A DNA stretch of 64,000 bases from Deinococcales bacterium (GTDB lineage Bacteria > Deinococcota > Deinococci > Deinococcales > JAAFIG01): NCBI GenBank assembly GCA_031414595.1, contig JANNVX010000032.1, forward strand, positions 6,947 to 70,946, written 5' to 3'. Made by a program: the position numbers and the translations under genes. The notes below the pieces were generated by a model that saw nothing but the letters and a program-made list of their open reading frames with translations, was not told where the DNA came from and did no database searches. This document shows positions 32,355 through 41,794 of this stretch, piece by piece. Every line of letters starts with the position of its first letter. Position 1 is the stretch's first letter.

Positions 32355-33869
32355 CTATTTACGGATTCTTACAAGGTCGTTCAGTACACCATCTAAGCCG
32401 TTGGTCACGGTTAGAGTTTGGACTTTTTCAATGATTCTTTCCAGTGCCTCGAGTTCTTTAAGACGCAATGCCACAGGGTTGTCTTCCATGACTTTAGCGG
32501 TGTTCAGCAAATTGCGGGTAGCGGCAGTTTCTTCGCGGCGACGAATCAAGTTGGCTTGGGCTTGTTTTTCGGCTTCAACCACTTTGGCAAGGATGGTTTT
32601 CATTTCGCCGGGCAAAATAATGTCTTTGACACCAACGCTCTCGAGTTGCATTCCTAGCCCCTCGAGTTTGGCGCGAACGATGCTGGCAATATCGCTGTCC
32701 AAGGCTGTTTTTTCCTCGAGTAGCGTATCTAAGCTCTTTGTGCCAATCACACTGCGGAGTGCAAATTGCAGTTCTTTGTACAAAAATGCCACAAAATCTG
32801 AGAGTTGGGCAAATGCCAGTAGTGGCTCGAGAACACGGTAGCCAGCCGTGAGATTCACACGTAGCGCAACTTTATCTTTGGTCAAGATTTCCTGTCCGCC
32901 AACCTCCAAGTTTTGCAAGCGCAAATCGGTGGCGGCGACTCGCACGCTGCGTCCGACTTTCCAGAAGGCATGAACCCCAACATTCAGTGGGCGCTCGAGT
33001 TTTCCATCTAGGAACAATGCGCCTTGGTGGTACTCTGGAACAAGGGCGTATTCGATAAAATTCTCGAGTGGTGTGCCTTTGGCATTCTTGGCGAGGGTTT
33101 GGGGGACATTCAAATCGCTGGTCTCGAGAATTTCAACTTTGGTGGCTTGGTCAAGCATTACCAAAGTATTGCTGCTTGGGGCAAAGGCACTGACAATGGC
33201 TGCACTGCGGCGGATAATCGCAACTTGCGTATCGGTCAGTTCTAGGCGGGTGAATTGCTCGAGCCACTCTGGGTTTTTAGCCAAAATAGCTTCGGCAACG
33301 TTTTTGGCAAGTGGAGCAGCCACAGTTTGCAAGGCAGTCGCAATATCTTCAAGTCCACGCCAGTAAACTCGGCGCTCACCGCTCGGCACAAGGTCTCGCA
33401 CTACGCCGCCTCGAGTCACAATTGCAAATTGCAAGGCAGCAGGGGCAACTTCGGTGAAGTATTTGGTGAGGACTGCTTTGTTACGAACTTGAGCCAGCAC
33501 CGCTCCAGTCTCGAGCAGAACGCCATCCGTAATGTTCAAAGTCAGAACTTTTAGGGCAGTAAATCCTTTCCAGAACAAGGCTTGAGTATTCGGAGCGACC
33601 ACATCGAGGATTTCATCACCTCGAGCAATCAAGGCGACTTCTAAAGCATTGGTTTGTACTGCTTCAAAGTGCTTGCCCACCACATCAGAACGGCGCTCGA
33701 GTAAAAAACTGGTCAGTCCATGCTCAAACCGAGTCCCTTGTGGAAAACGTTCAACGCTGTAACCAGAGCCATAAACCGTGTTTGCGCCAGCCTCGAGAAT
33801 ACGAATAAAACGACCGTGACGGGTGAGAATGCCTTTTTCAATGTCTTTCATTGGAAAATTTTGAATCAT
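32355..33869 (-). CDS. SPFH/Band-7 domain protein with ~300-aa N-terminal repeat extension
   Basis: The C-terminal half has SPFH core and coiled-coil motifs (EAEKQAQANLIRRRE...NPVALRLKELEAL). Start trimmed to MIQNF, preceded by AAAGAGG. Confidence 0.6.
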   Translation of the reverse strand: MIQNFPMKDIEKGILTRHGRFIRILEAGANTVYGSGYSVERFPQGTRFEHGLTSFLLERRSDVVGKHFEAVQTNALEVALIARGDEILDVVAPNTQALFWKGFTALKVLTLNITDGVLLETGAVLAQVRNKAVLTKYFTEVAPAALQFAIVTRGGVVRDLVPSGERRVYWRGLEDIATALQTVAAPLAKNVAEAILAKNPEWLEQFTRLELTDTQVAIIRRSAAIVSAFAPSSNTLVMLDQATKVEILETSDLNVPQTLAKNAKGTPLENFIEYALVPEYHQGALFLDGKLERPLNVGVHAFWKVGRSVRVAATDLRLQNLEVGGQEILTKDKVALRVNLTAGYRVLEPLLAFAQLSDFVAFLYKELQFALRSVIGTKSLDTLLEEKTALDSDIASIVRAKLEGLGMQLESVGVKDIILPGEMKTILAKVVEAEKQAQANLIRRREETAATRNLLNTAKVMEDNPVALRLKELEALERIIEKVQTLTVTNGLDGVLNDLVRIRK

Positions 33870-34165
33870 AATAAACCTCTTTAAGTACAAGGCTAGAAAC
33901 CTTGCCTTTCGCCTTTATCTTTGCCTGCTTTGTCTCGAGTATTTCGGGTCTCAAATGGGCTACTTGGCGCGTGTTCGCTGGGTGGAAAGCGTCTCGAGCA
34001 AATGTTCTGCTCGAGGTGGCATTTCTGGTGGGCGAATCGGTGCTTTGTGCCGATGCGAGACTCGAGGCTTTGGGCTTTACTTTGGGTTTCCCCTTAGTTT
34101 GGCTTCTTGCAACTCGAGACAAAACAGGTGCTGCTTGTGTTGCGTAATTTTTCCGTTTCAAGGAA

Positions 34166-34239
34166 AGTGATTTATGGGAGTCGAACCCATTACCGTCAGT
34201 TTACAAGACTGATGCTCTAACCAGTTGAGCTAAAACCTT
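34166..34239 (-). tRNA. tRNA-Thr(UGU)-like; acceptor stem does not pair as read
   Basis: D-arm GCTCAACTGGTTAGAGC. Anticodon loop CUUGUAA. T-arm ATGGGTTCGACTCCCAT. 5' AAGGTTT against 3' AAATCAC gives only 3 bp. Confidence 0.4.
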
Positions 34240-34241
34240 GG

Positions 34242-34327
34242 TAAAAGATGCAGGATTTGAACCTGCTTGCCCTTGCGGGCGCTCGTTTTTCAGACGAGTG
34301 CGTTTATCCAGTATCCGCCAATCTTTT
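34242..34327 (-). tRNA. type II (long variable arm, Leu-like body) tRNA with apparent GAA anticodon
   Basis: Acceptor AAAAGAT/ATCTTTT. D-arm TGGCGGA...CGC. Anticodon arm CTCGT-CUGAAAA-ACGAG. Variable hairpin GCCCGCAAGGGC. T-arm GCAGGTTCAAATCCTGC. Followed by ACCA. Confidence 0.5.
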
Positions 34328-34330
34328 TTT

Positions 34331-34405
34331 GGTGAAAGGAATCGAACCTCTGACCTCTCGAGTGGTTTACCCATCCCAAGCGCTCTGCCCATCTAAGCTA
34401 CACCG
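34331..34405 (-). tRNA. tRNA-like element; anticodon arm unresolved
   Basis: Canonical T-arm GGTTCGATTCC and D-arm GCTT-AGATGGGCA-GAGC. Only a 4-bp acceptor (GGTG/CACC). The 3' end abuts the next tRNA. Confidence 0.3.
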
Positions 34406-34601
34406 TTTATCTTTGTGCGATATGCAGATTAAGCATGGCTTAAAAGCATCGGCGGGGCATACAGAACCCCAAACCACAGCACGAGATGTAGGAAGTGTAC
34501 TCGAGCAGATGAAGTTGCACATGACTGTTTTAGCTTAGGTTTGGGGTACGCCATTTACTTAGAATTTATCCTGAAATTAAGTGCTGCGAGCAATAGTATT
34601 G

Positions 34602-35537
34602 TTACTTTAATACTTGAATTAACAAAGCAGGGTCGTAATTTCCTCCCGAGACGATACAAACTGTTTTACCGACTGGCTTAAAGGCTTGGCTGCGAATTGC
34701 GGCGGTGGTTAGTGCGCCCGTTGGTTCGACGGCTAATTTGGTCTCGAGAAAGAGGTGTTTCATGGCTTCATAAACAGCCTCTTCGGAAACAGTGATGATG
34801 TCGTCCACCAGCCTACTGATAATTCCAAAATTCAGCACCCCAATCCCTTGAGTTCGCACCCCGTCGCAAATGGTTCGGGTCACTAAACTGGCATCCCATG
34901 AACGGCGTTCTTTAGCGTAAAACGATTCTCTGGCATCGGCGGCGAGTTCGGGTTCTACCCCAATCACACGGGTTTTGGGCGATAAGGCTTTGATGCTGGT
35001 CGCAATTCCAGCCAATAAGCCGCCACCACCAACACAGACCAGCACGGTATCCACATCTTCTAAATCCGAAAGTATCTCGAGTCCGATTGTACCTTGCCCA
35101 GCAATCATTCGGGCATCATCGAATGGGGCAATATACTCGAGACCTTTTTGATCCCGAATGTCCATAGCAACTTTCATTCGTTTGTCCGAGGCATTGGGAC
35201 AGCGCACAATCTCTGCGCCCCAAGCCGCCGTTCGATCTACTTTAATTTGTGGGGCGTTGTGTGGAATCACAATTGTGGCTGGAATGTCGTGCATAAAGGC
35301 AGCCGCCGCCACCCCTTGGGCATGATTTCCGCTCGAGTCTGCCACCACACCACGCGCTCGAGTTTCGGGGTCTAGGCTCGAGATGGCATTGTATGCCCCA
35401 CGAAACTTAAAACTTCCAGTCACTTGCAGATTTTCGGGTTTTAACCAAATCCCGTTCTCGAGTGGTAAAAGCGGTGTGTGCCTTGCAAAACCTTTGATTC
35501 TCGAGGCTGCCATTTGCACATCTTCTAAGGTAATCAC
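34602..35537 (-). CDS. threonine dehydratase (catabolic-type, ~311 aa)
   Basis: PLP motif SFKFRGAYN. Gly-rich PLP phosphate loop. Start taken as GTG after GGAG (MITLEDVQ). Confidence 0.7.
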   Translation of the reverse strand: MITLEDVQMAASRIKGFARHTPLLPLENGIWLKPENLQVTGSFKFRGAYNAISSLDPETRARGVVADSSGNHAQGVAAAAFMHDIPATIVIPHNAPQIKVDRTAAWGAEIVRCPNASDKRMKVAMDIRDQKGLEYIAPFDDARMIAGQGTIGLEILSDLEDVDTVLVCVGGGGLLAGIATSIKALSPKTRVIGVEPELAADARESFYAKERRSWDASLVTRTICDGVRTQGIGVLNFGIISRLVDDIITVSEEAVYEAMKHLFLETKLAVEPTGALTTAAIRSQAFKPVGKTVCIVSGGNYDPALLIQVLK

Positions 35538-36658
35538 AGTTTGTACTCCGTGAATGGAGCAACGTCTGGTTGACCATTGGACACCCACATCGTTCGCGTC
35601 TCGAGATTCATAATCACACCACAAATTGTGGCAACGCGGTCTTCTACGGGTTCTTCGGTGTTTGGGTAACGACAAATTCCATCTGGGTCATCGTCGCGGT
35701 CAGCTAGGAATTCCTTAAAATCCTCGAGTTTTAATGGGCGGCGCTCTTGGAGCAGTTCGGTCATGCGTTTTTGGCGGTGATAACTGTGCGGGCGGCGTTC
35801 AGAGGGCGGCTCGATGATGTTTAGGCTTTGCGGGTCTAAGAAATGATTGGTGTGCGCCATGCTGCCCTGATGACACGAAACGGCGCGAATCCCATGTGGG
35901 GCAGTTTCAAAATCAATGGCTTGGTCTGGGGCAAGTGCGACCATAAAATTGGTGCTACAGGCTTTTGTACCATCGTCTATGACGCTTTTTGCTTGCTCGA
36001 GCGAGGTCGAGCGCAGAATTTCCCAGCAGCGTGCATGGGTCGGACGGGCTTCCCGAGACCAATCGTCGTCCATACTGGTTAGCCCCGAGATGCACAAACC
36101 TAATCCAGCACTGTTCAAACCCAGTTTTGGGGCAAAAATTCCTGCTTCGGTAAACCCAAGCGTCTCGAGTCCATCGTGGTGCTTGGTACGCAGTAATGCC
36201 CCTTTGACATTTTCAATCCAATCCCAATTCTGACCCATCGTTAATTGCCCGCTTGCGGTGGCTTCTGGCAATGCCGCAAATAATGTACAACCATCTGGAC
36301 GGCGATGCTCGGGCGAAGCAGTCACCCTTGTCAAACCGTTCTTCTCGAGTCCAACCGTACCGTACTGATAATACAGAATTTCGTAGCGAGCGTTTAAGGC
36401 GGCAATCTCAAAGAAATTACGCCCAGAACTCTGCGAAATCCCGCGCATCCCTTCAGAAAAGGCTGGCGAAAACTTCTCAAAATGCCGAGCGATCTTCGCC
36501 GCCATTGATAGGGTCTGTTCACGGGTCAGTTTGGCTTCTTTTTCAAAACGGTAAAAGTACAATTCAATATTATGCTCGATTAAATCTTTTAGTGCCTCAC
36601 CGTGGGCTAAGCCCTGCTCGAATGGCGTGCCGGATAATTCCACAAGTCTAAAAGTCAT
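35534..36658 (-). CDS. peptidase C45 / acyl-CoA:6-APA acyltransferase-like Ntn hydrolase
   Basis: Autoproteolytic DG|CT site (PDGCTLFAA). Start trimmed to MTFRLVEL. Confidence 0.6.
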   Translation of the reverse strand: MTFRLVELSGTPFEQGLAHGEALKDLIEHNIELYFYRFEKEAKLTREQTLSMAAKIARHFEKFSPAFSEGMRGISQSSGRNFFEIAALNARYEILYYQYGTVGLEKNGLTRVTASPEHRRPDGCTLFAALPEATASGQLTMGQNWDWIENVKGALLRTKHHDGLETLGFTEAGIFAPKLGLNSAGLGLCISGLTSMDDDWSREARPTHARCWEILRSTSLEQAKSVIDDGTKACSTNFMVALAPDQAIDFETAPHGIRAVSCHQGSMAHTNHFLDPQSLNIIEPPSERRPHSYHRQKRMTELLQERRPLKLEDFKEFLADRDDDPDGICRYPNTEEPVEDRVATICGVIMNLETRTMWVSNGQPDVAPFTEYKL

Positions 36659-36727
36659 GCGGTAAGCATACCTTGACTCGAGGGCAGACACATACGAGAA
36701 ATGGCGCAGTAAAACCGCTAAACCGTA

Positions 36728-36749
36728 GGGGCAAGGCATGCCTTGCCCC
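36728..36749 (-). terminator. perfect 22-bp palindrome GGGGCAAGGCATGCCTTGCCCC
   Basis: Located downstream of csaB on the minus strand. A T-rich stretch follows on that strand. Confidence 0.35.
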
Positions 36750-36771
36750 GCAAGAGAAGCGTTTTATGTCC

Positions 36772-36852
36772 TCTAGCGCCCATGCAAAGCTGGTTCTAGC
36801 GCCCATGCAAAACTGGTTCTAGCGCCCATGCAAAACTGGCTCTAGCGCGGGC
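36772..36852. repeat. tandem repeat, 23 bp x ~3.5 (TCTAGCGCCCATGCAAAACTGGT)
   Basis: Three full units plus a partial one. They span the csaB stop codon and its last ~19 codons. Confidence 0.65.
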
Positions 36853-37791
36853 TTTCATGGCTTCTACAGCTTCCCAATTCGGTTGGTCATTTCTTAGTAT
36901 CGCTGCCTCGAGAACGCCAATATCAAAGCTGGTAGGTAACTCGAGGGCGCTGACATCACGGCAAAAGCCTTGAACTTTGGGGTCATAAGAGATTCCATAA
37001 AAAGGAACTCGAGCCGCCGCCGCCAGAATCACTGCATGAAGGCGCACACCAATGACTGCACCACTGCTTGCAATCAGTTCTAATGCCCGAGCAGGATTAG
37101 CGGTGTTTTCGATGCGGGTATTGGGGATTCCTTCAAAGGCTTTCAGTTCATCGTCATCCCAACCGGGTTGGAAACCAAGCGCCACAATATTTTTACCTTG
37201 TTGTACCAATTTTTTAGCGAGTTCGACGAGGCAATCAGTGGCAGCCGCTTGTCCTTCACGTGGGGCAATCAGGATTTGATTTGGGTTTTGGGTCACACCA
37301 ACTGGTTTTTCCAAGAGTAGCGCAGGGTCGCCGCCAAGTTGCACCGCCACGCCCAATTTCTCGAGCAGTGCAAAACTGCCAGTGTCACGGACAATACTGG
37401 TTACGCCACGCAAGGACGCGGCTACTCGAGCCTGCCCCTGAGTGGACAATGGTCCGATGCTTTGGTTAAACACCGCCACCCGCTTGCCGAGCATTTTTGC
37501 CGAACCAATAATGCCAAGGTAATAAGTCAGGGTGCGGCTCGAGGTTTTGTCTTGCAGTAAGCCACCGCCACCAGACAAGACCACATCGGCGCTGAAGATA
37601 GCCAGTGGTGTTTGTATTGGACTCATGCGTTTGACTGACTTAACACCGTATAAAGCAGTTGTTTCGGCTGGGTTGGCACTCAGCACCGTGACTGTATGCC
37701 CAAGCCGAGTTAATTCTCTGGTGATGGCAAGGCAAATGGCTTCATCGCCAGTGTTCTTAAAACCGTAATAACCACAAAGTAAAATCTTCAT
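36796..37791 (-). CDS. csaB: polysaccharide pyruvyl transferase (CsaB-like)
   Basis: N-terminal ILLCGYYGxxNxGDEAI motif. 331 aa. Confidence 0.65.
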   Translation of the reverse strand: MKILLCGYYGFKNTGDEAICLAITRELTRLGHTVTVLSANPAETTALYGVKSVKRMSPIQTPLAIFSADVVLSGGGGLLQDKTSSRTLTYYLGIIGSAKMLGKRVAVFNQSIGPLSTQGQARVAASLRGVTSIVRDTGSFALLEKLGVAVQLGGDPALLLEKPVGVTQNPNQILIAPREGQAAATDCLVELAKKLVQQGKNIVALGFQPGWDDDELKAFEGIPNTRIENTANPARALELIASSGAVIGVRLHAVILAAAARVPFYGISYDPKVQGFCRDVSALELPTSFDIGVLEAAILRNDQPNWEAVEAMKARARASFAWALEPVLHGR

Positions 37792-39269
37792 TTTGTTTTT
37801 TTCTTACGACGGCGTTTATGCTTTTTGTCAAAGTTGGCTGGAACTGGGACAGCATTGGGTTTTTCTCGAGGTGGCGTGTTGTGATCAAAAACAGGCAAAA
37901 GCGCTAACCAAGGCTGGGCGGGTTTAGCCAGTACCTCAAGAATTTGTGTGCCGTAGCGCTCGAGTTTTTTGACCCCGATGCCTTTTATCTGGCTGCATTC
38001 TTCTAAGTTGCGCGGGGTTTCTTGGGCTAATTCAGCAAGAATAGCGTTACTTAAAACCAAAAAGCGGCTGATGCCCTCAGTGTTGGCGGTTGTGTCGCGC
38101 CATGTCCGAAGCTGAAGAAAGCGGTCTAAAGTGGGGTTGTCCATGCCAATGCTCACATCGTCTAGGGCTGGTAATGGTGGATGGGCTGCGCCTTCGGGTT
38201 CGTCTAACTCGAGTGGTTCGGGTTCGGGGGTGACTTCAAAAGCGGCATCTAATGCCGGCTCGAGAACCCGCCAAGTGTCAAGGACATCTTCTAAGCCAAG
38301 GCTTAAACGCACCAAGCAATCGGATAAACCTAAACCAAGTGGCTCGAGGGCGCGGTGACTGGTGCGGTTGGGAATACAAACGGTGTTTTCGGCGCTGGCA
38401 ATCCAGTCGAGCGTTTCAAAGTGCCGTAATTTATCTACAAAGGCTTTGGCGGCTTCGGGAACAGCAAATTCAAGAGCAATCAGCGAACCATTCATCTCGC
38501 GTCCGTCACGGGTTAAGTTGGTTTCAGAACTCGGATAGGTTATACCGATAATCGCGGCATGGCTTTCGATTTTGGGTAAAACCGTGAGTGCCGAAGCCGT
38601 TTGGCGCTCGAGACGTACCGAGAGGGTTTTTAAGCCGCGTAAGGCACTGCCACAAACTTGGGCGTTGGGTCTTGCGCCCACAGTGTCTCGGTGTCCGCGA
38701 AGGCGCTCTAGGAGGTCTTCGGAGCGCCCCATGATTGCCCCAAATGCCAAGGTGCTGTCACCTGTCAGTGACGAGGCACTGGTGTAAATCACGGCATCTA
38801 TGGCGAACTCGAGCGGGCGACAGGCAAACATCGTCAGAACCGAATTGTCCACCACCAATAACGCACCTGCCTGATGGACTTTTGAAGCCAGTTTACTCAA
38901 ATCGAACGCCGTTAAAGTTGCCGAAGTTGGATTTTCAACAAAGACCAGACTTGTGCCGTCAAATGAAACTTCGGGGCTGGTCAGGTCGTTGAATTCAATT
39001 TCAATATCAAATTCGGACAAAGCACTAAACGCCCGTACCGCAAATCCAGAGGACTCCGAGTGCAACATCACTTTGTCATTTGGGCGCAACAAGCGCCCCA
39101 AGGCATCCAAAGCGGCTCTTCCTGAAGAAAATGCCACACTCCACGCGCCGCGACCAGACAAACCACTGCCCTCGAGTACCCCAAGGCGAGCTTCTAACTG
39201 CGCCAATGGGTTCGGAAGGTGATTTTCGGCGCGGACAGCCAGACTATCAAAACGCAAACCGTCGTCCAT
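37788..39269 (-). CDS. Cys/Met-metabolism PLP-fold domain (catalytic Lys replaced by Ser) fused to an HRDC domain and polybasic tail
   Basis: LVVDNS and SSGRAAL motifs are present. YTSASSLTGDST aligns to HSATKYLGGHSD. C-terminal HRDC (RFLVLSNAILAELAQ...IKGIGVKKLERYG). Tail KKHKRRRKKKTK. Confidence 0.6.
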   Translation of the reverse strand: MDDGLRFDSLAVRAENHLPNPLAQLEARLGVLEGSGLSGRGAWSVAFSSGRAALDALGRLLRPNDKVMLHSESSGFAVRAFSALSEFDIEIEFNDLTSPEVSFDGTSLVFVENPTSATLTAFDLSKLASKVHQAGALLVVDNSVLTMFACRPLEFAIDAVIYTSASSLTGDSTLAFGAIMGRSEDLLERLRGHRDTVGARPNAQVCGSALRGLKTLSVRLERQTASALTVLPKIESHAAIIGITYPSSETNLTRDGREMNGSLIALEFAVPEAAKAFVDKLRHFETLDWIASAENTVCIPNRTSHRALEPLGLGLSDCLVRLSLGLEDVLDTWRVLEPALDAAFEVTPEPEPLELDEPEGAAHPPLPALDDVSIGMDNPTLDRFLQLRTWRDTTANTEGISRFLVLSNAILAELAQETPRNLEECSQIKGIGVKKLERYGTQILEVLAKPAQPWLALLPVFDHNTPPREKPNAVPVPANFDKKHKRRRKKKTK

Positions 39270-39408
39270 GCTTTTTCATCATAACCCGTTTTGGGGGGGC
39301 GTAAGTCAAGGGGGCAAAAACAGGGTGCATCTCAAGATTGGGGTTGCCTATAAATTAGCTCTCTGACAGCCTCCTAAAAGTAAATCGAATCATTATCCGC
39401 TCCTAAAG

Positions 39409-39492
39409 CCCTCTCCCAACTCGCTTAGGCTCGTTACCCTCTCCCGCGTGCGGGAGAGGGTCGTTGCGAGTTCACGAGCAACGGGGAGAGGG
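39409..39492. repeat. third copy of the CCCAACTCGCTTAGGCTCGTTACCC element with adjacent hairpins
   Basis: Same core as the MITE ends at 31964 and 32246. Followed by hairpin CCCTCTCCCGC-GTG-CGGGAGAGGG. Confidence 0.45.
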
Positions 39493-39565
39493 TTTTAGGT
39501 CTTCATTCTGTGACAAAAACCCCCAATTCTGAGATGCACCCCGAAAAACACGGCATAATAGGCGC

Positions 39566-41794
39566 ATGAAGTTAAGCGAATTTAATCCCCTCAACTGGAA
39601 TCCTAAACGTTGGGCAAGTTATGTACCTTTTGGGATTGGTCAACAGCGCCCCAATAATTATCTCGAGGTTTTTAGGGCAGCTTGGGAATCCAAGGATAAT
39701 TTGGGCTATGCTTGGAAAGTCCTGAATGAAGGTGTCTGTGACGGCTGCGCCCTTGGCACAAGCGGCTTAAAAGATTGGACACTGGACGGGATTCACCTCT
39801 GTAACATCCGTTTGCGTTTGTTGCGCCTAAATACCATGCCCGCTCTCGAGACCGCTTGGCTTGGTGATGTCTCGGCACTACGGGCGCTCTCGAGTAAAGA
39901 ACTGCGCGACCTTGGGCGTTTACCATTTCCAATGCGCCGTAAGAAAAACCAAACAGGATTCTCGAGAATTACATGGGATGAGGCACTGGATGCGATTGCA
40001 ACTCGAGTCAAAGATACATCAGCACGGCGGATGGGCTTTTTTTTAACCTCGAGAGGCATGACCAACGAAGGCTACTACACCGTACAGAAAGCAGTTCGAG
40101 CAATCGGGTCTAACTGCATAGACAACGCGGCACGGCTCTGTCACAGCCCTAGTACCGTCGCCCTCAAACAAACCCTTGGGATTGTTGCCACAACTTGTTC
40201 TTATACTGACTGGATTGGTTCGGATGTGGTGGTTTTTATTGGTAGCAACGTGGCGACCAATCAGCCAGTGGCGACCAAATACCTGCACCATGCCAAGGTT
40301 GCTGGCACAAAAGTGGTTTGTGTCAATGCTTACCGCGAACCCGGAATGGAGCGTTACTGGGTCCCCAGTGCGCCAGAGAGTGCCGTTTTTGGAACTAAAA
40401 TCACTGATTCGTTTTATTTGGTCAATACGGGCGGTGATGCGGCTTTTTTAAGTGGAGTCTTAAAGCACATCTTGCACCTTGGACTCGAGAACAAAGAATT
40501 TGTAGAAGCACGCACATCAGGTTTTGATGCCTTAAGAATTCATCTCGAGGCGTTGGACTGGGCGGAACTTGAAACCAGTAGCGGCTCGAGTGTTACCGAA
40601 ATGCAAGAATTAGCGCTACAACTCGGCTCTGCCAAGACTGGCGTTTTGGTTTGGAGTATGGGCGTGACCCAGCATTTTTGTGGTGAGGACACGGTACGAG
40701 CGATTGTCAATCTTGGTTTAGCGCTTGGTTGGGTCGGACGAGACAAATGCGGTTTAATGCCAATTCGCGGACATTCTGGGGTGCAAGCTGGCGCAGAAAT
40801 GGGTGCATACAGCACGATGCTGCCCGGTGGTCTCAATCCATCCGAAGAAAATTATGTGGCACTCGAGCAGCAATACGGTTTTAGCCTGTCTCGAGAGTCT
40901 GGACTGACCGTTCCAGAAATGATAGATGCAGCTTTTAACCAAGAACTCGATTTACTATTTGCAGTTGGCGGTAATTTTCTCGAGGTGCTGCCCGACCCGA
41001 ATTACGTGGCTGTGGCATTAGAGCAAGTGCCTTTGCGGGTGCATATGGACTTGGTGCTGTCGAGTCAAATGCTGCTTGATGGCGAAGACGTGATTGTCTT
41101 ACCCGCAATGACACGCTATGAAATTGCTGGCGGTGTGACCGAAACCAGTACCGAACGCCGCGTGATTTACAGCCCCGAAATTATTGGACACCGAATCCCA
41201 GAAGCTCGAGCCGAACTCGATGTCTTTATGGATTTAGCCCGTCGGGTTCGCCCAGAAATGGCAGCCCAACTGACTTTTAAGAATACCCAAGCCATCCGTG
41301 AAGAAATTGCTCGAGTCATCCCTAGTTACAACGGCATTGAACATTTAGCCAAACAAGGCGACCAATTTCAAATGTCTGGGCGACACTTATGCGAAGGTGG
41401 TATTTTTAAGACCCCAGACACAAAAGGGCGATTTAGCGTGGTTCATCCCTCGAGCAGTGCCGTTCCAGAAGGATTTTTTAGGTTATCCACACGACGCGGA
41501 AAACAATTTAATTCGATGATTCATGAACATAAAGACAGCATCAATGGGGCAATGCGTGACTCGGTGCTGATGAGTGTTGTGGATGCAGCTAACCTAGGAC
41601 TCAAAAATGGGGACGCGGTAGAACTGAAGTCAACCCACGGTAGCATGTTAGCTCGAGTCTGGATTGCCAATGTTAAACCCAGCAATCTTCAAGTTCACTT
41701 TCCGGAAGGCAATGTGCTGCTCGATAAATCCAAGCGCTCGGCACAAAGTCATATCCCAGATTACAATGCACTGGTGCAAATCACTCGAGTCTAG
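39566..41794 (+). CDS. FdhF/YdeP-family molybdopterin oxidoreductase
   Basis: Colinear with E. coli YdeP, including the CHSPS...GSN region and the C-terminal MoCo-binding domain. 742 aa. Confidence 0.75.
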   Translation: MKLSEFNPLNWNPKRWASYVPFGIGQQRPNNYLEVFRAAWESKDNLGYAWKVLNEGVCDGCALGTSGLKDWTLDGIHLCNIRLRLLRLNTMPALETAWLGDVSALRALSSKELRDLGRLPFPMRRKKNQTGFSRITWDEALDAIATRVKDTSARRMGFFLTSRGMTNEGYYTVQKAVRAIGSNCIDNAARLCHSPSTVALKQTLGIVATTCSYTDWIGSDVVVFIGSNVATNQPVATKYLHHAKVAGTKVVCVNAYREPGMERYWVPSAPESAVFGTKITDSFYLVNTGGDAAFLSGVLKHILHLGLENKEFVEARTSGFDALRIHLEALDWAELETSSGSSVTEMQELALQLGSAKTGVLVWSMGVTQHFCGEDTVRAIVNLGLALGWVGRDKCGLMPIRGHSGVQAGAEMGAYSTMLPGGLNPSEENYVALEQQYGFSLSRESGLTVPEMIDAAFNQELDLLFAVGGNFLEVLPDPNYVAVALEQVPLRVHMDLVLSSQMLLDGEDVIVLPAMTRYEIAGGVTETSTERRVIYSPEIIGHRIPEARAELDVFMDLARRVRPEMAAQLTFKNTQAIREEIARVIPSYNGIEHLAKQGDQFQMSGRHLCEGGIFKTPDTKGRFSVVHPSSSAVPEGFFRLSTRRGKQFNSMIHEHKDSINGAMRDSVLMSVVDAANLGLKNGDAVELKSTHGSMLARVWIANVKPSNLQVHFPEGNVLLDKSKRSAQSHIPDYNALVQITRV

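Follow-up and report, generated by a model that had tools for sequence, protein, structure and literature searches.

A predicted PLP-fold pseudoenzyme fused to an HRDC domain and encoded upstream of csaB in uncultured Deinococcales

In the window (the whole stretch of DNA that was analysed, 64,000 nucleotides in length), a gene on the minus strand (37788..39269; 493 amino acids, ATG start) encodes a lysine-less domain of the Cys/Met-metabolism PLP fold, which is followed by an HRDC domain and a basic tail. The alignments indicate that the product is a PLP-fold pseudoenzyme in which the fold has been kept; because every member of the family has lost the Schiff-base lysine along with most of the PLP contacts, canonical PLP chemistry is impossible. 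Probably, the protein is a non-catalytic descendant of trans-sulfuration enzymes that belongs to the DR2444 family and forms an oligomeric core with nucleic-acid-binding arms, and its pairing with csaB is mainly an operon arrangement.

Loss of the Schiff-base lysine in the PLP-like domain

The N-terminal PLP-like domain (residues 1-345; 38235..39269, minus strand), which has a net charge of -14, was assigned to the trans-sulfuration enzymes of fold type I by Pfam and by an AF2 model compared with known structures in Foldseek. The Pfam profile Cys_Met_Meta_PP matches residues 40-340 over profile positions 66-380 of 381 (E 2.9e-44; 151.6 bits against a cut-off of 27), and the protein carries the motifs SSGRAAL, LVVDNS, YTSASSLTGDST, and KKHKRRRKKKTK; the likeness to the Cys/Met-metabolism family that an earlier, sequence-only reading of this DNA had noticed is thus borne out. 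Structure prediction agrees: the AF2 model has a pLDDT of 74, and its top Foldseek matches are human and bacterial cystathionine gamma-lyases, with E values of about 1e-25 (2e-25 to 2nmp). All 25 NCBIfam equivalog families listed score below their cut-offs, the best being NF005758 with 153.8 bits against 440.

The same reading had claimed that serine replaces the catalytic lysine. In an ungapped phmmer alignment against PDB sequences (E 1.8e-35), HSATKYLGGHSD of S. aureus cystathionine gamma-lyase lies opposite YTSASSLTGDST, and therefore Ser166 (codon 38772..38774, minus strand) is the equivalent of the Schiff-base lysine. The main alignment comprised 119 sequences, namely 96 enzymes and 23 fused proteins, to which distant members were added to give 28 family members. 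Lysine occupies the Schiff-base column, located in the HS(A/T)TK motif, in 96/96 enzymes, whereas the 23 fused proteins carry alanine (17), serine (5), or glycine (1); with the distant members included, the counts become Ala20/Ser5/Gly3, so that the claimed loss holds for 28/28 members of the family.

Other contacts with the cofactor have been lost as well. The PLP-stacking tyrosine of the YGGT motif, present in 96/96 enzymes, is replaced in the 28 family members by Ser (19), Pro (4), Thr (2), Gly (2), or Asn (1); the asparagine of the TNP motif, which belongs to the contacts with the phosphate and O3' of PLP and is also found in 96/96 enzymes, is replaced by Ser, Thr, Gly, or Ile; and the phosphate-binding threonine that precedes the lysine in 95/96 enzymes is mostly alanine. 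Moreover, the histidine of the GGH motif (96/96 enzymes) is aspartate in 23/23 fused proteins, and an N-terminal loop of approximately 30 residues, carrying the YxYxR motif whose Tyr and Arg bind the PLP of the neighbouring subunit, has been deleted, which may alter the oligomer. The aspartate that partners pyridine N1 is kept as Asp141 in 26/28 members (Glu in two), the substrate-carboxylate arginine is kept as Arg321 in 26/28, and the Ser-Gly phosphate loop and His305 are kept in most; the most distant members have lost Arg321 and have a shortened C-terminal subdomain. Compared with cystathionine gamma-lyase, cystathionine gamma-synthase, and methionine gamma-lyase (PF01053, gamma family), the window protein therefore shares the fold, the Ser-Gly loop, Asp141, His305, and Arg321 but lacks the Schiff-base Lys, the stacking Tyr, the Asn, the Thr, and the N-terminal Tyr/Arg loop, stays below every equivalog cut-off, and possesses an additional HRDC domain and tail.

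Among the 23 members, 72 of the 345 columns of the PLP-like domain are invariant, and the alignments indicate that the family is under purifying selection. In the csaB-linked subfamily, the former pocket is remodelled, with R51 in place of Leu/Met, R200 in place of Val/Ile, Q204 in place of Phe/Met, W289 in place of Ser, and R306 in place of Ala; conserved together with D141 and R321, these residues would fit ligand binding better than a pure scaffold. The distant members P0245 and P0353 have lost R51, R321, and R306, so that the pocket is not shared by the whole family.

The HRDC domain, the basic tails, and the family

The PLP-like domain is joined to the HRDC domain by an acidic Pro/Glu-rich linker (TPEPEP..LDEPE; residues 346-375; 38145..38234, minus strand) with a net charge of -8. 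Its motif T347-P348-x-P350-x-P352..E354-x-D356-x-P358 is kept, its net charge lies between -5 and -10 in 23/23 members, and the AF2 model has low pLDDT at residues 354-368. The HRDC domain itself (residues 376-450; 37920..38144, minus strand) is matched by PF00570 at residues 381-447 over profile positions 2-68 of 68 (E 1.5e-19; 70.2 bits against 23.8). It is followed by a variable spacer with a REKPNAVP motif and no invariant columns (residues 451-479; 37833..37919, minus strand), whose C-terminal end (residues 461-477) is predicted to be disordered, and by a polybasic tail, FDKKHKRRRKKKTK (residues 480-493; 37791..37832, minus strand), with a net charge of +9. The order of a C-terminal HRDC domain and a polybasic tail had been read correctly from the sequence at the outset. 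The whole protein is acidic, with a net charge of about -13, and the HRDC domain is roughly neutral in the family (-3 to +4).

The best PDB match of the HRDC domain is HRDC#3 of D. radiodurans RecQ (2rhf; E 1.7e-8). The window HRDC contains K434-K435, and position 435, the equivalent of EcRecQ K587 and DrRecQ R806, is basic throughout the 28 members (Lys in 22, Arg in 6). In both RecQ proteins, mutagenesis has shown that basic residues where helix 5 begins (EcRecQ K587, DrRecQ K805/R806) take part in DNA contact (PMC2396406). Relative to the C-terminal HRDC domains of RecQ, especially DrRecQ HRDC#3, the window HRDC thus keeps the basic residue of helix 5 but is attached to neither a helicase nor an RNase D core and is followed by the disordered spacer and basic tail. 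DNA binding by isolated HRDC domains can be weak (the Kd of DrRecQ HRDC#3 is above 10 uM), and such domains can also serve as protein-interaction modules.

The tails are variable in sequence, and their net charge ranges from +7 to +9 across 23/23 close members. At the equivalent place, distant members carry KRRGRPRK or AKKP-repeat tails; AT-hook-like KRRGRPRK and H1/HU-like AKKP repeats are classic types of DNA-binding tail. The member from Deinobacterium chartae has no basic tail. The likeness to DrRecQ HRDC#3, the Lys or Arg in 28/28 members, the basic tails, and the coupling of the D. chartae gene to a SpoU-family gene (see below) were counted in favour of nucleic-acid binding, and the neutral HRDC domain, the acidity of the whole protein, the weak binding of isolated HRDC domains, and the tail-less D. 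chartae member were counted against it. A search with the C-terminal 149 amino acids alone returned only one unrelated HRDC+HTH_40 protein and missed the family, probably owing to the word index and low complexity.

The fused family comprises 24 protein clusters from several sources, ranging from 98% to 44% identity, together with the more distant members P0243, P0244, P0245, and P0353. It was found in 14 GTDB species, and all 14 genome loci belong to Deinococcales or to Deinococcota MAGs. Uncultured Deinococcales, with identities that fall to about 30%, and the cultured D. chartae all have the fusion in a single ORF; the joining to HRDC is ancestral and has been kept in this form. The D. chartae protein, annotated as an HRDC domain-containing protein (WP_183987532.1), is collinear with the window protein (30% identity, E 1e-31) and shares with it both the N-terminal deletion and the missing lysine. 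Compared with this homologue, the window subfamily has a longer PLP-like domain (~345 versus ~280 amino acids), the TPEPEP..EPDEPE linker, the polybasic tail, and an obligatory place upstream of csaB.

The sequence-only reading was not aware of any description of this architecture, but one exists: D. radiodurans DR2444 has been reported to combine an N-terminal PLP-enzyme fold with a C-terminal HRDC domain (PMC1978522, PMC6300522). The window protein probably belongs to this DR2444-type family of the Deinococcales, an assignment based on the published architecture and the D. chartae homologue. DR2444 and the HRDC domain-containing proteins of Deinococcaceae resemble it in having an N-terminal PLP-enzyme fold and a C-terminal HRDC domain, no helicase or nuclease, and an origin in the order Deinococcales. 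The mutant lacking DR2444 function is recorded as not sensitive to radiation and therefore offers no phenotypic guide to function. What is new here is the loss of the lysine, the tails, and the csaB coupling; the architecture was already known. Literature searches found nothing on HRDC, cystathionine, and Deinococcus in combination and nothing on DUF5693, and the papers found on PLP-dependent pseudoenzymes did not mention an HRDC domain. With the D. chartae member as query, tblastn against a plasmid collection gave no Deinococcus match. In a metagenome scan led by the D. chartae alignment, the match was confined to the PLP-like part at 79/80 loci, which presumably encode ordinary trans-sulfuration enzymes; L025 (the contig of P0019) was the one locus matched over both domains, and the scan yielded no new genomic context for the tail-less subfamily.

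Linkage to csaB and a leaderless-type promoter

Directly downstream lies csaB, the one neighbour that is conserved, which encodes a polysaccharide pyruvyl transferase (36796..37791, minus strand; TIGR03609, 275.1 bits against a cut-off of 213.1), and the TGA stop of the fused gene overlaps the csaB start codon as ATGA, as had been noted from the sequence. The gene is followed by csaB in 12/12 GTDB loci and in L017, L021, and L023 (15/15 csaB-lineage loci); the two genes overlap by 1-4 bp in 10/13 gene pairs and again in L021, and the flanks on both sides of the pair vary between sub-lineages. Further downstream on the same strand, a C45 proenzyme gene (NF040521, 240 bits) was found together with a PALP-fold gene that resembles Ser/Thr dehydratases, in agreement with the sequence-only reading, which had described the whole as an odd operon. 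This description stands for csaB but not for the C45 and dehydratase genes, which occur near the fused gene only in the window and in its 98%-identical relative L001; as they are absent from all other loci, they were rejected as parts of the system.

Other Deinococcales have a DUF5693-csaB arrangement; DUF5693 was not found by tblastn in the window or in the loci of the fused gene. In D. chartae, DUF5693-csaB lies on one contig and the PLP-like-HRDC gene on another, where it precedes, and is coupled by overlap to, a gene for a SpoU-family RNA methylase. The comparison of loci indicates that the csaB link is lineage-specific.

Exactly 8 nt upstream of the ATG of the fused gene, the -10-like hexamer TATGAT (39278..39283, minus strand) was identified; there is no Shine-Dalgarno sequence, and the promoter is of the leaderless type. 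TATGAT, or TAAGAT or TATAAT in distant members, occurs at equal distance in the window and in 18/18 loci compared, in which the other upstream DNA is not conserved. A generic sigma-70 scan missed this conserved box. The hexamer TTGACT, 20 nt upstream of TATGAT, is too far away for a canonical -35 element and is unconserved outside close relatives. The -10 box aside, the upstream DNA showed no conserved operator-like repeat. The only matches in a search of positions 33500-40500 against Rfam (E <= 1) were tRNAs located downstream of the dehydratase gene, and neither a riboswitch nor a leader RNA was seen ahead of the fused gene.

Proposed function and competing explanations

According to the favoured explanation, the acidic PLP-like domain would form a stable dimer or tetramer core, which is proposed because the enzyme relatives are obligate oligomers. 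In each subunit, the acidic Pro/Glu linker of ~30 residues would lead to the HRDC domain, then to the disordered spacer, and finally to the strongly basic tail, and the assembly would bind DNA (or RNA) multivalently as a nucleoid- or nucleic-acid-associated factor rather than as a metabolic enzyme. In the uncultured lineage, the gene would be transcribed from the leaderless-type promoter, and csaB would be expressed behind it by termination-reinitiation coupling; the pairing of the two genes would mainly reflect an operon order that became fixed when the lineage arose and is not proof of a shared biochemical pathway.

The notion that the fused gene is an artefact of assembly or of a frameshift, or a pseudogene in decay that joins two genes, found no support and is refuted: the same single ORF recurs in 14 independent species-level genomes and in 24 protein clusters, the linker motif is conserved, and many columns are invariant. 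It is very unlikely that the protein is still an enzyme, one that would carry out a new reaction with non-covalently held PLP or PMP or with another residue. Most members keep D141, the Ser-Gly loop, H305, and R321, and conservation of the domain is strong, but the Lys, the stacking Tyr, the Asn, the Thr, and the Tyr/Arg loop of the neighbouring subunit were lost together, and the most distant members dispense with R321 and part of the C-terminal subdomain as well. The suggestion of a novel enzyme using another residue, raised in the sequence-only reading, thus becomes improbable because at least five additional PLP contacts have been lost.

A ligand-sensing regulator resembling MocR/GabR, whose pocket would bind a small anionic metabolite non-covalently and so control DNA binding by the HRDC domain and tail as well as the csaB operon, appears rather unlikely. 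The invariant, family-specific polar residues R51, R200, Q204, W289, and R306, which replace hydrophobic ones at or near the former active site, the carboxylate-binding R321 kept along with D141, and the promoter-proximal position of the gene relative to csaB in all 15 csaB-lineage loci would suit such a role; however, no HTH or other sequence-specific DNA-binding domain was detected (Pfam, E <= 0.01), HRDC domains are not known to read operators, the pocket residues R51, R321, and R306 are missing from P0245 and P0353, the D. chartae homologue does not adjoin csaB, and no operator-like repeat lies upstream beyond the -10 box. In MocR proteins, PLP is held through a Schiff-base lysine. The common logic is a PLP-fold oligomerisation/effector domain linked to a nucleic-acid-binding module, whereas the window protein has the reversed order, a gamma-family domain, no HTH, and no lysine; MocR proteins are described as carrying a GntR winged-HTH at the N-terminus, together with a domain of the aminotransferase class, and as binding PLP (PMC5320631, PMC5734734). 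It is likewise rather unlikely that the protein is an accessory or scaffold of CsaB in the pyruvylation of secondary cell-wall polymers, with the tail anchored to the anionic inner membrane leaflet or a lipid-linked substrate and the dead pocket possibly binding PEP or pyruvate. Unbroken synteny with csaB and frequent overlaps of 1-4 bp, even though the flanks vary, speak for this role, as does the fact that the gene takes the slot held by the membrane protein DUF5693 upstream of csaB in other Deinococcales. Nevertheless, the family predates the csaB linkage, given the separate contigs in D. chartae, the leaderless promoter and overlap explain retention without physical interaction, and HRDC domains are not known to take part in building the envelope.

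Beyond the preferred reading of a non-catalytic, nucleic-acid-associated core, a bolder proposal may be entertained, though we regard it as speculative and hold it with low confidence: DR2444-like proteins might constitute a hitherto unrecognised class of nucleoid- or nucleic-acid-associated pseudoenzymes in which a dead trans-sulfuration oligomer serves as the hub, two to four arms, each an HRDC domain with its basic tail, bridge DNA, condense it, or act as RNA chaperones, and the remodelled, Arg/Trp-lined former PLP pocket senses a metabolite.

For more than 15 years, Deinococcus gene lists have carried the family as a "PLP-binding enzyme fused to HRDC" or as a RecQ-like protein, and metagenome pipelines label it cystathionine beta-lyase/gamma-synthase; the latter annotation is wrong because no member retains the Schiff-base lysine and most contacts with the cofactor are missing from all of them. 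The advance is modest, as the architecture itself is not new, but it raises the question of what role a dead PLP fold tethered to a nucleic-acid-binding module may play. The co-located basic tails of differing type and the conserved DNA-contact residue of the HRDC domain make multivalent DNA or RNA binding a testable hypothesis. The csaB coupling and the leaderless promoter provide an example of a lineage rewiring the expression of an envelope gene, and if the bridging and metabolite-sensing proposal were true, the expression or activity of CsaB would depend on nucleoid state or metabolic state in this uncultured lineage.

A trans-sulfuration fold without its lysine

The product (493 aa) of the ORF at 37788-39269 (-) contains a Cys_Met_Meta_PP domain (residues 40-340; Pfam E 2.9e-44) and an HRDC domain (residues 381-447; Pfam E 1.5e-19). 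In an AlphaFold2 model built from the family alignment (mean pLDDT 74), the PLP-like domain and the HRDC bundle are ordered and the linker (354-368) and the C-terminal 33 residues are disordered; Foldseek matches the model to human and bacterial cystathionine gamma-lyases (E about 1e-25). HSATKYLGGHSD of the protein aligns without gaps opposite YTSASSLTGDST of S. aureus cystathionine gamma-lyase, and therefore Ser166 (codon 38772-38774, -) occupies the Schiff-base lysine position. The sequence-only reading had claimed this lysine-to-serine change, and its other statements on the gene (ORF, Pfam domains, csaB overlap, neighbours) were likewise correct when checked.

The loss extends to the cofactor contacts. 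In an alignment of 23 fused proteins (single-ORF PF01053-HRDC relatives) with 96 ordinary PF01053 enzymes, the Schiff-base column is Lys in 96/96 enzymes and A17/S5/G1 in the fused proteins; the PLP-stacking Tyr (96/96) is replaced by S/G/P/T, the Asn of the TNP motif (96/96) by S/T/G/I, the Thr preceding the lysine (95/96) mostly by Ala, and the His of GGH (96/96) by Asp in 23/23. Inclusion of four further, more remote members gave A20/S5/G3 at the lysine position, in 28/28 family members. Moreover, an N-terminal segment of roughly 30 residues is deleted from the window protein; in the enzymes it bears a Tyr/Arg pair that extends into the phosphate site of the neighbouring subunit. NCBIfam equivalog scores all fall far under their cut-offs. 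The protein has kept the trans-sulfuration fold without being a working trans-sulfuration enzyme, and it is very probably a pseudoenzyme devoid of canonical PLP chemistry.

Distribution and relation to DR2444

Among 5.8 billion proteins, 24 clusters have the PF01053+PF00570 architecture (98% to 44% identity), and scores fall sharply from 404 to 151 bits between them and ordinary enzymes. The fused gene is found in 14 species-level genomes, all Deinococcales or Deinococcota MAGs. Searching 1.84 billion representatives with a profile added the more distant lysine-less fused members P0243 (592 aa), P0244 (535 aa), P0245 (521 aa) and P0353 (407 aa). The last, WP_183987532.1 of cultured Deinobacterium chartae, is annotated "HRDC domain-containing protein", aligns collinearly with the window protein (E 1e-31) and shares its N-terminal deletion and missing lysine, which indicates that the pseudoenzyme state is ancestral to the family. 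The HRDC fusion is itself ancestral and under selection. A frameshift artefact, envisaged by the sequence-only reading, is refuted by the same fusion in D. chartae and the distant members; one fused ORF recurs in the relatives checked.

Although that reading was right about the lysine-less pseudoenzyme and the reality of the fusion, it was not aware of any description of the architecture, and an identical one has been published for D. radiodurans DR2444 (PMC1978522, PMC6300522). DR2444 is not induced by irradiation (Makarova et al., PMC1978522), and the same paper, with reference to Huang et al. 2006 (PMID 16736577), lists its mutant as not radiation-sensitive; the protein is conserved in Deinococcus and its function is called unknown (PMC6300522). 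In later papers it is filed with the HRDC proteins, or even with RecQ. No mention of lysine loss, or of any biochemistry of DR2444-type proteins, was found in the literature searched. Since the published architecture is identical, the taxon agrees and a D. chartae homologue exists, the window protein is likely a DR2444-type family member, the likeness being drawn from the description of DR2444 and the D. chartae proxy.

The csaB operon and its surroundings

The TGA of the window gene overlaps the csaB ATG as ATGA (TIGR03609 score 275 bits, cut-off 213). csaB lies directly downstream of the fused gene in 12/12 GTDB loci that reach far enough, and also in L017, L021 and L023; in 10 of 13 gene pairs, window included, the two genes overlap by 1-4 bp. 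Beyond csaB lie a C45 proenzyme gene (35534-36739, -) and a PALP-fold Ser/Thr-dehydratase-like gene. Flanking genes on both sides of the pair vary between sub-lineages, and these two neighbours are confined to the window and one relative of 98% identity; of the "odd operon" proposed earlier, only csaB is conserved.

The dehydratase-like ORF, listed with a TTG start (34602-35675, -), shares 142 nt with the C45 gene; the true start therefore probably lies further inside the ORF. The best NCBIfam match is threo-3-hydroxy-L-aspartate ammonia-lyase at 315 bits, under the cut-off of 452, so the gene is no clear-cut IlvA or TdcB. Directly downstream is a tRNA cluster (34166-34404, -), in which ARAGORN finds tRNA-Thr(TGT) and tRNA-Phe(GAA) and Rfam a third, weaker tRNA match (34331-34404).

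A hexamer resembling a -10 element, TATGAT (39278-39283, -), precedes the window gene's ATG by exactly 8 nt. It holds this position in the window and in 18/18 loci compared (L001-L014, L017, L021, L023, L024), with TAAGAT or TATAAT in distant members, and thereby fixes the start codon; the remaining upstream DNA is unconserved in the 18 loci. No Shine-Dalgarno sequence precedes the fused gene in the window or these loci, which, with the 8-nt spacing, suggests a leaderless-type transcript. Such transcripts are common in Deinococcus. Window csaB also has no Shine-Dalgarno sequence, and its translation probably depends on termination-reinitiation. The window gene and csaB form a leaderless-type operon. 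The divergent intergenic region that separates the window gene from a molybdopterin oxidoreductase gene holds a near-perfect 24-nt palindrome, CCCTCTCCCGCACGCGGGAGAGGG (39437-39460), present as a single copy in the window and flanked by the similar words CCCTCTCC and GGGAGAGGG.

Five Deinococcales contigs, including those of D. peraridilitoris and D. chartae, have csaB in a conserved ELFV_dehydrog-PRK-DUF5693-csaB block. The DUF5693 gene lies upstream of csaB (L015 4073-5857, L016 4217-6004, L018 3152-4993, L019 3120-4976, L020 3169-5004), which it often overlaps, and encodes about 600 aa; to judge by its hydrophobic stretches, the L016 copy looks like a multi-pass membrane protein. Literature searches turned up nothing on DUF5693, and tblastn detected no copy in the window or the fused-gene loci. 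The D. chartae fused gene (407 aa, tail-less) lies on another contig than csaB and has a 4-bp overlap with a SpoU_methylase + SpoU_methylas_C gene (both at L024 5001-6880). SpoU proteins are a family of RNA 2'-O-methyltransferases, and the overlap may hint at a role connected with RNA. Given the DUF5693-csaB block and the SpoU pairing, the fused gene-csaB arrangement is derived and lineage-specific.

HRDC domain, basic tail and function

The top solved-structure match of the window HRDC is D. radiodurans RecQ HRDC#3 (2rhf; E 1.7e-8), in which K805/R806 affect DNA binding (Killoran and Keck, PMC2396406); the same effect is noted for the analogous EcRecQ K587 and for Sgs1 and BLM lysines (PMC2396406). 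In 28/28 members a K or R stands at the position equivalent to K805/R806 (window K434-K435). All 23 close members share one charge layout: a PLP-like core of net charge -10 to -14, a linker of -5 to -10, an approximately neutral HRDC and a tail of +7 to +9. What persists in the tail is its composition and not its sequence: the same place holds RRRRRRTPRKK in P0244, the AT-hook-like KRRGRPRK in P0243 and L017, and in P0245 a long (~50 aa), Ala/Lys/Pro-rich stretch of H1/HU-type look; the D. chartae member has none. Poly-basic, AT-hook-like and Ala/Lys/Pro tails are classic DNA-binding types.

Nucleic-acid binding is somewhat favoured as the working function of the window protein. The PLP-like domain would serve as an oligomeric core, its enzyme relatives being obligate dimers or tetramers, and would present flexible HRDC/basic-tail arms that may bind DNA or RNA multivalently. 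The PLP-like domain is the best-conserved region, with 72/345 columns invariant in 23 members; it keeps the Ser-Gly loop, Asp141, His305 and the carboxylate-binding Arg321, and has several new invariant polar residues in or close to the former active site (R51, R200, Q204, W289, R306). A metabolite-sensing regulator is an improbable reading, a CsaB accessory or membrane tether is just as improbable, and a residual enzyme is very improbable; reliance of csaB on termination-reinitiation could alone explain why the pair is kept intact.

Relative to the literature searched, three points are new: catalytic lysine and cofactor contacts are lost systematically, basic tails of differing build occupy one position, and csaB belongs to a leaderless operon. 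With lysine and contacts lost, annotations such as "PLP-binding enzyme" or "cystathionine lyase/synthase" are wrong; within a known, uncharacterised Deinococcales family, the window protein represents a divergent variant that bears a tail and is coupled to csaB.
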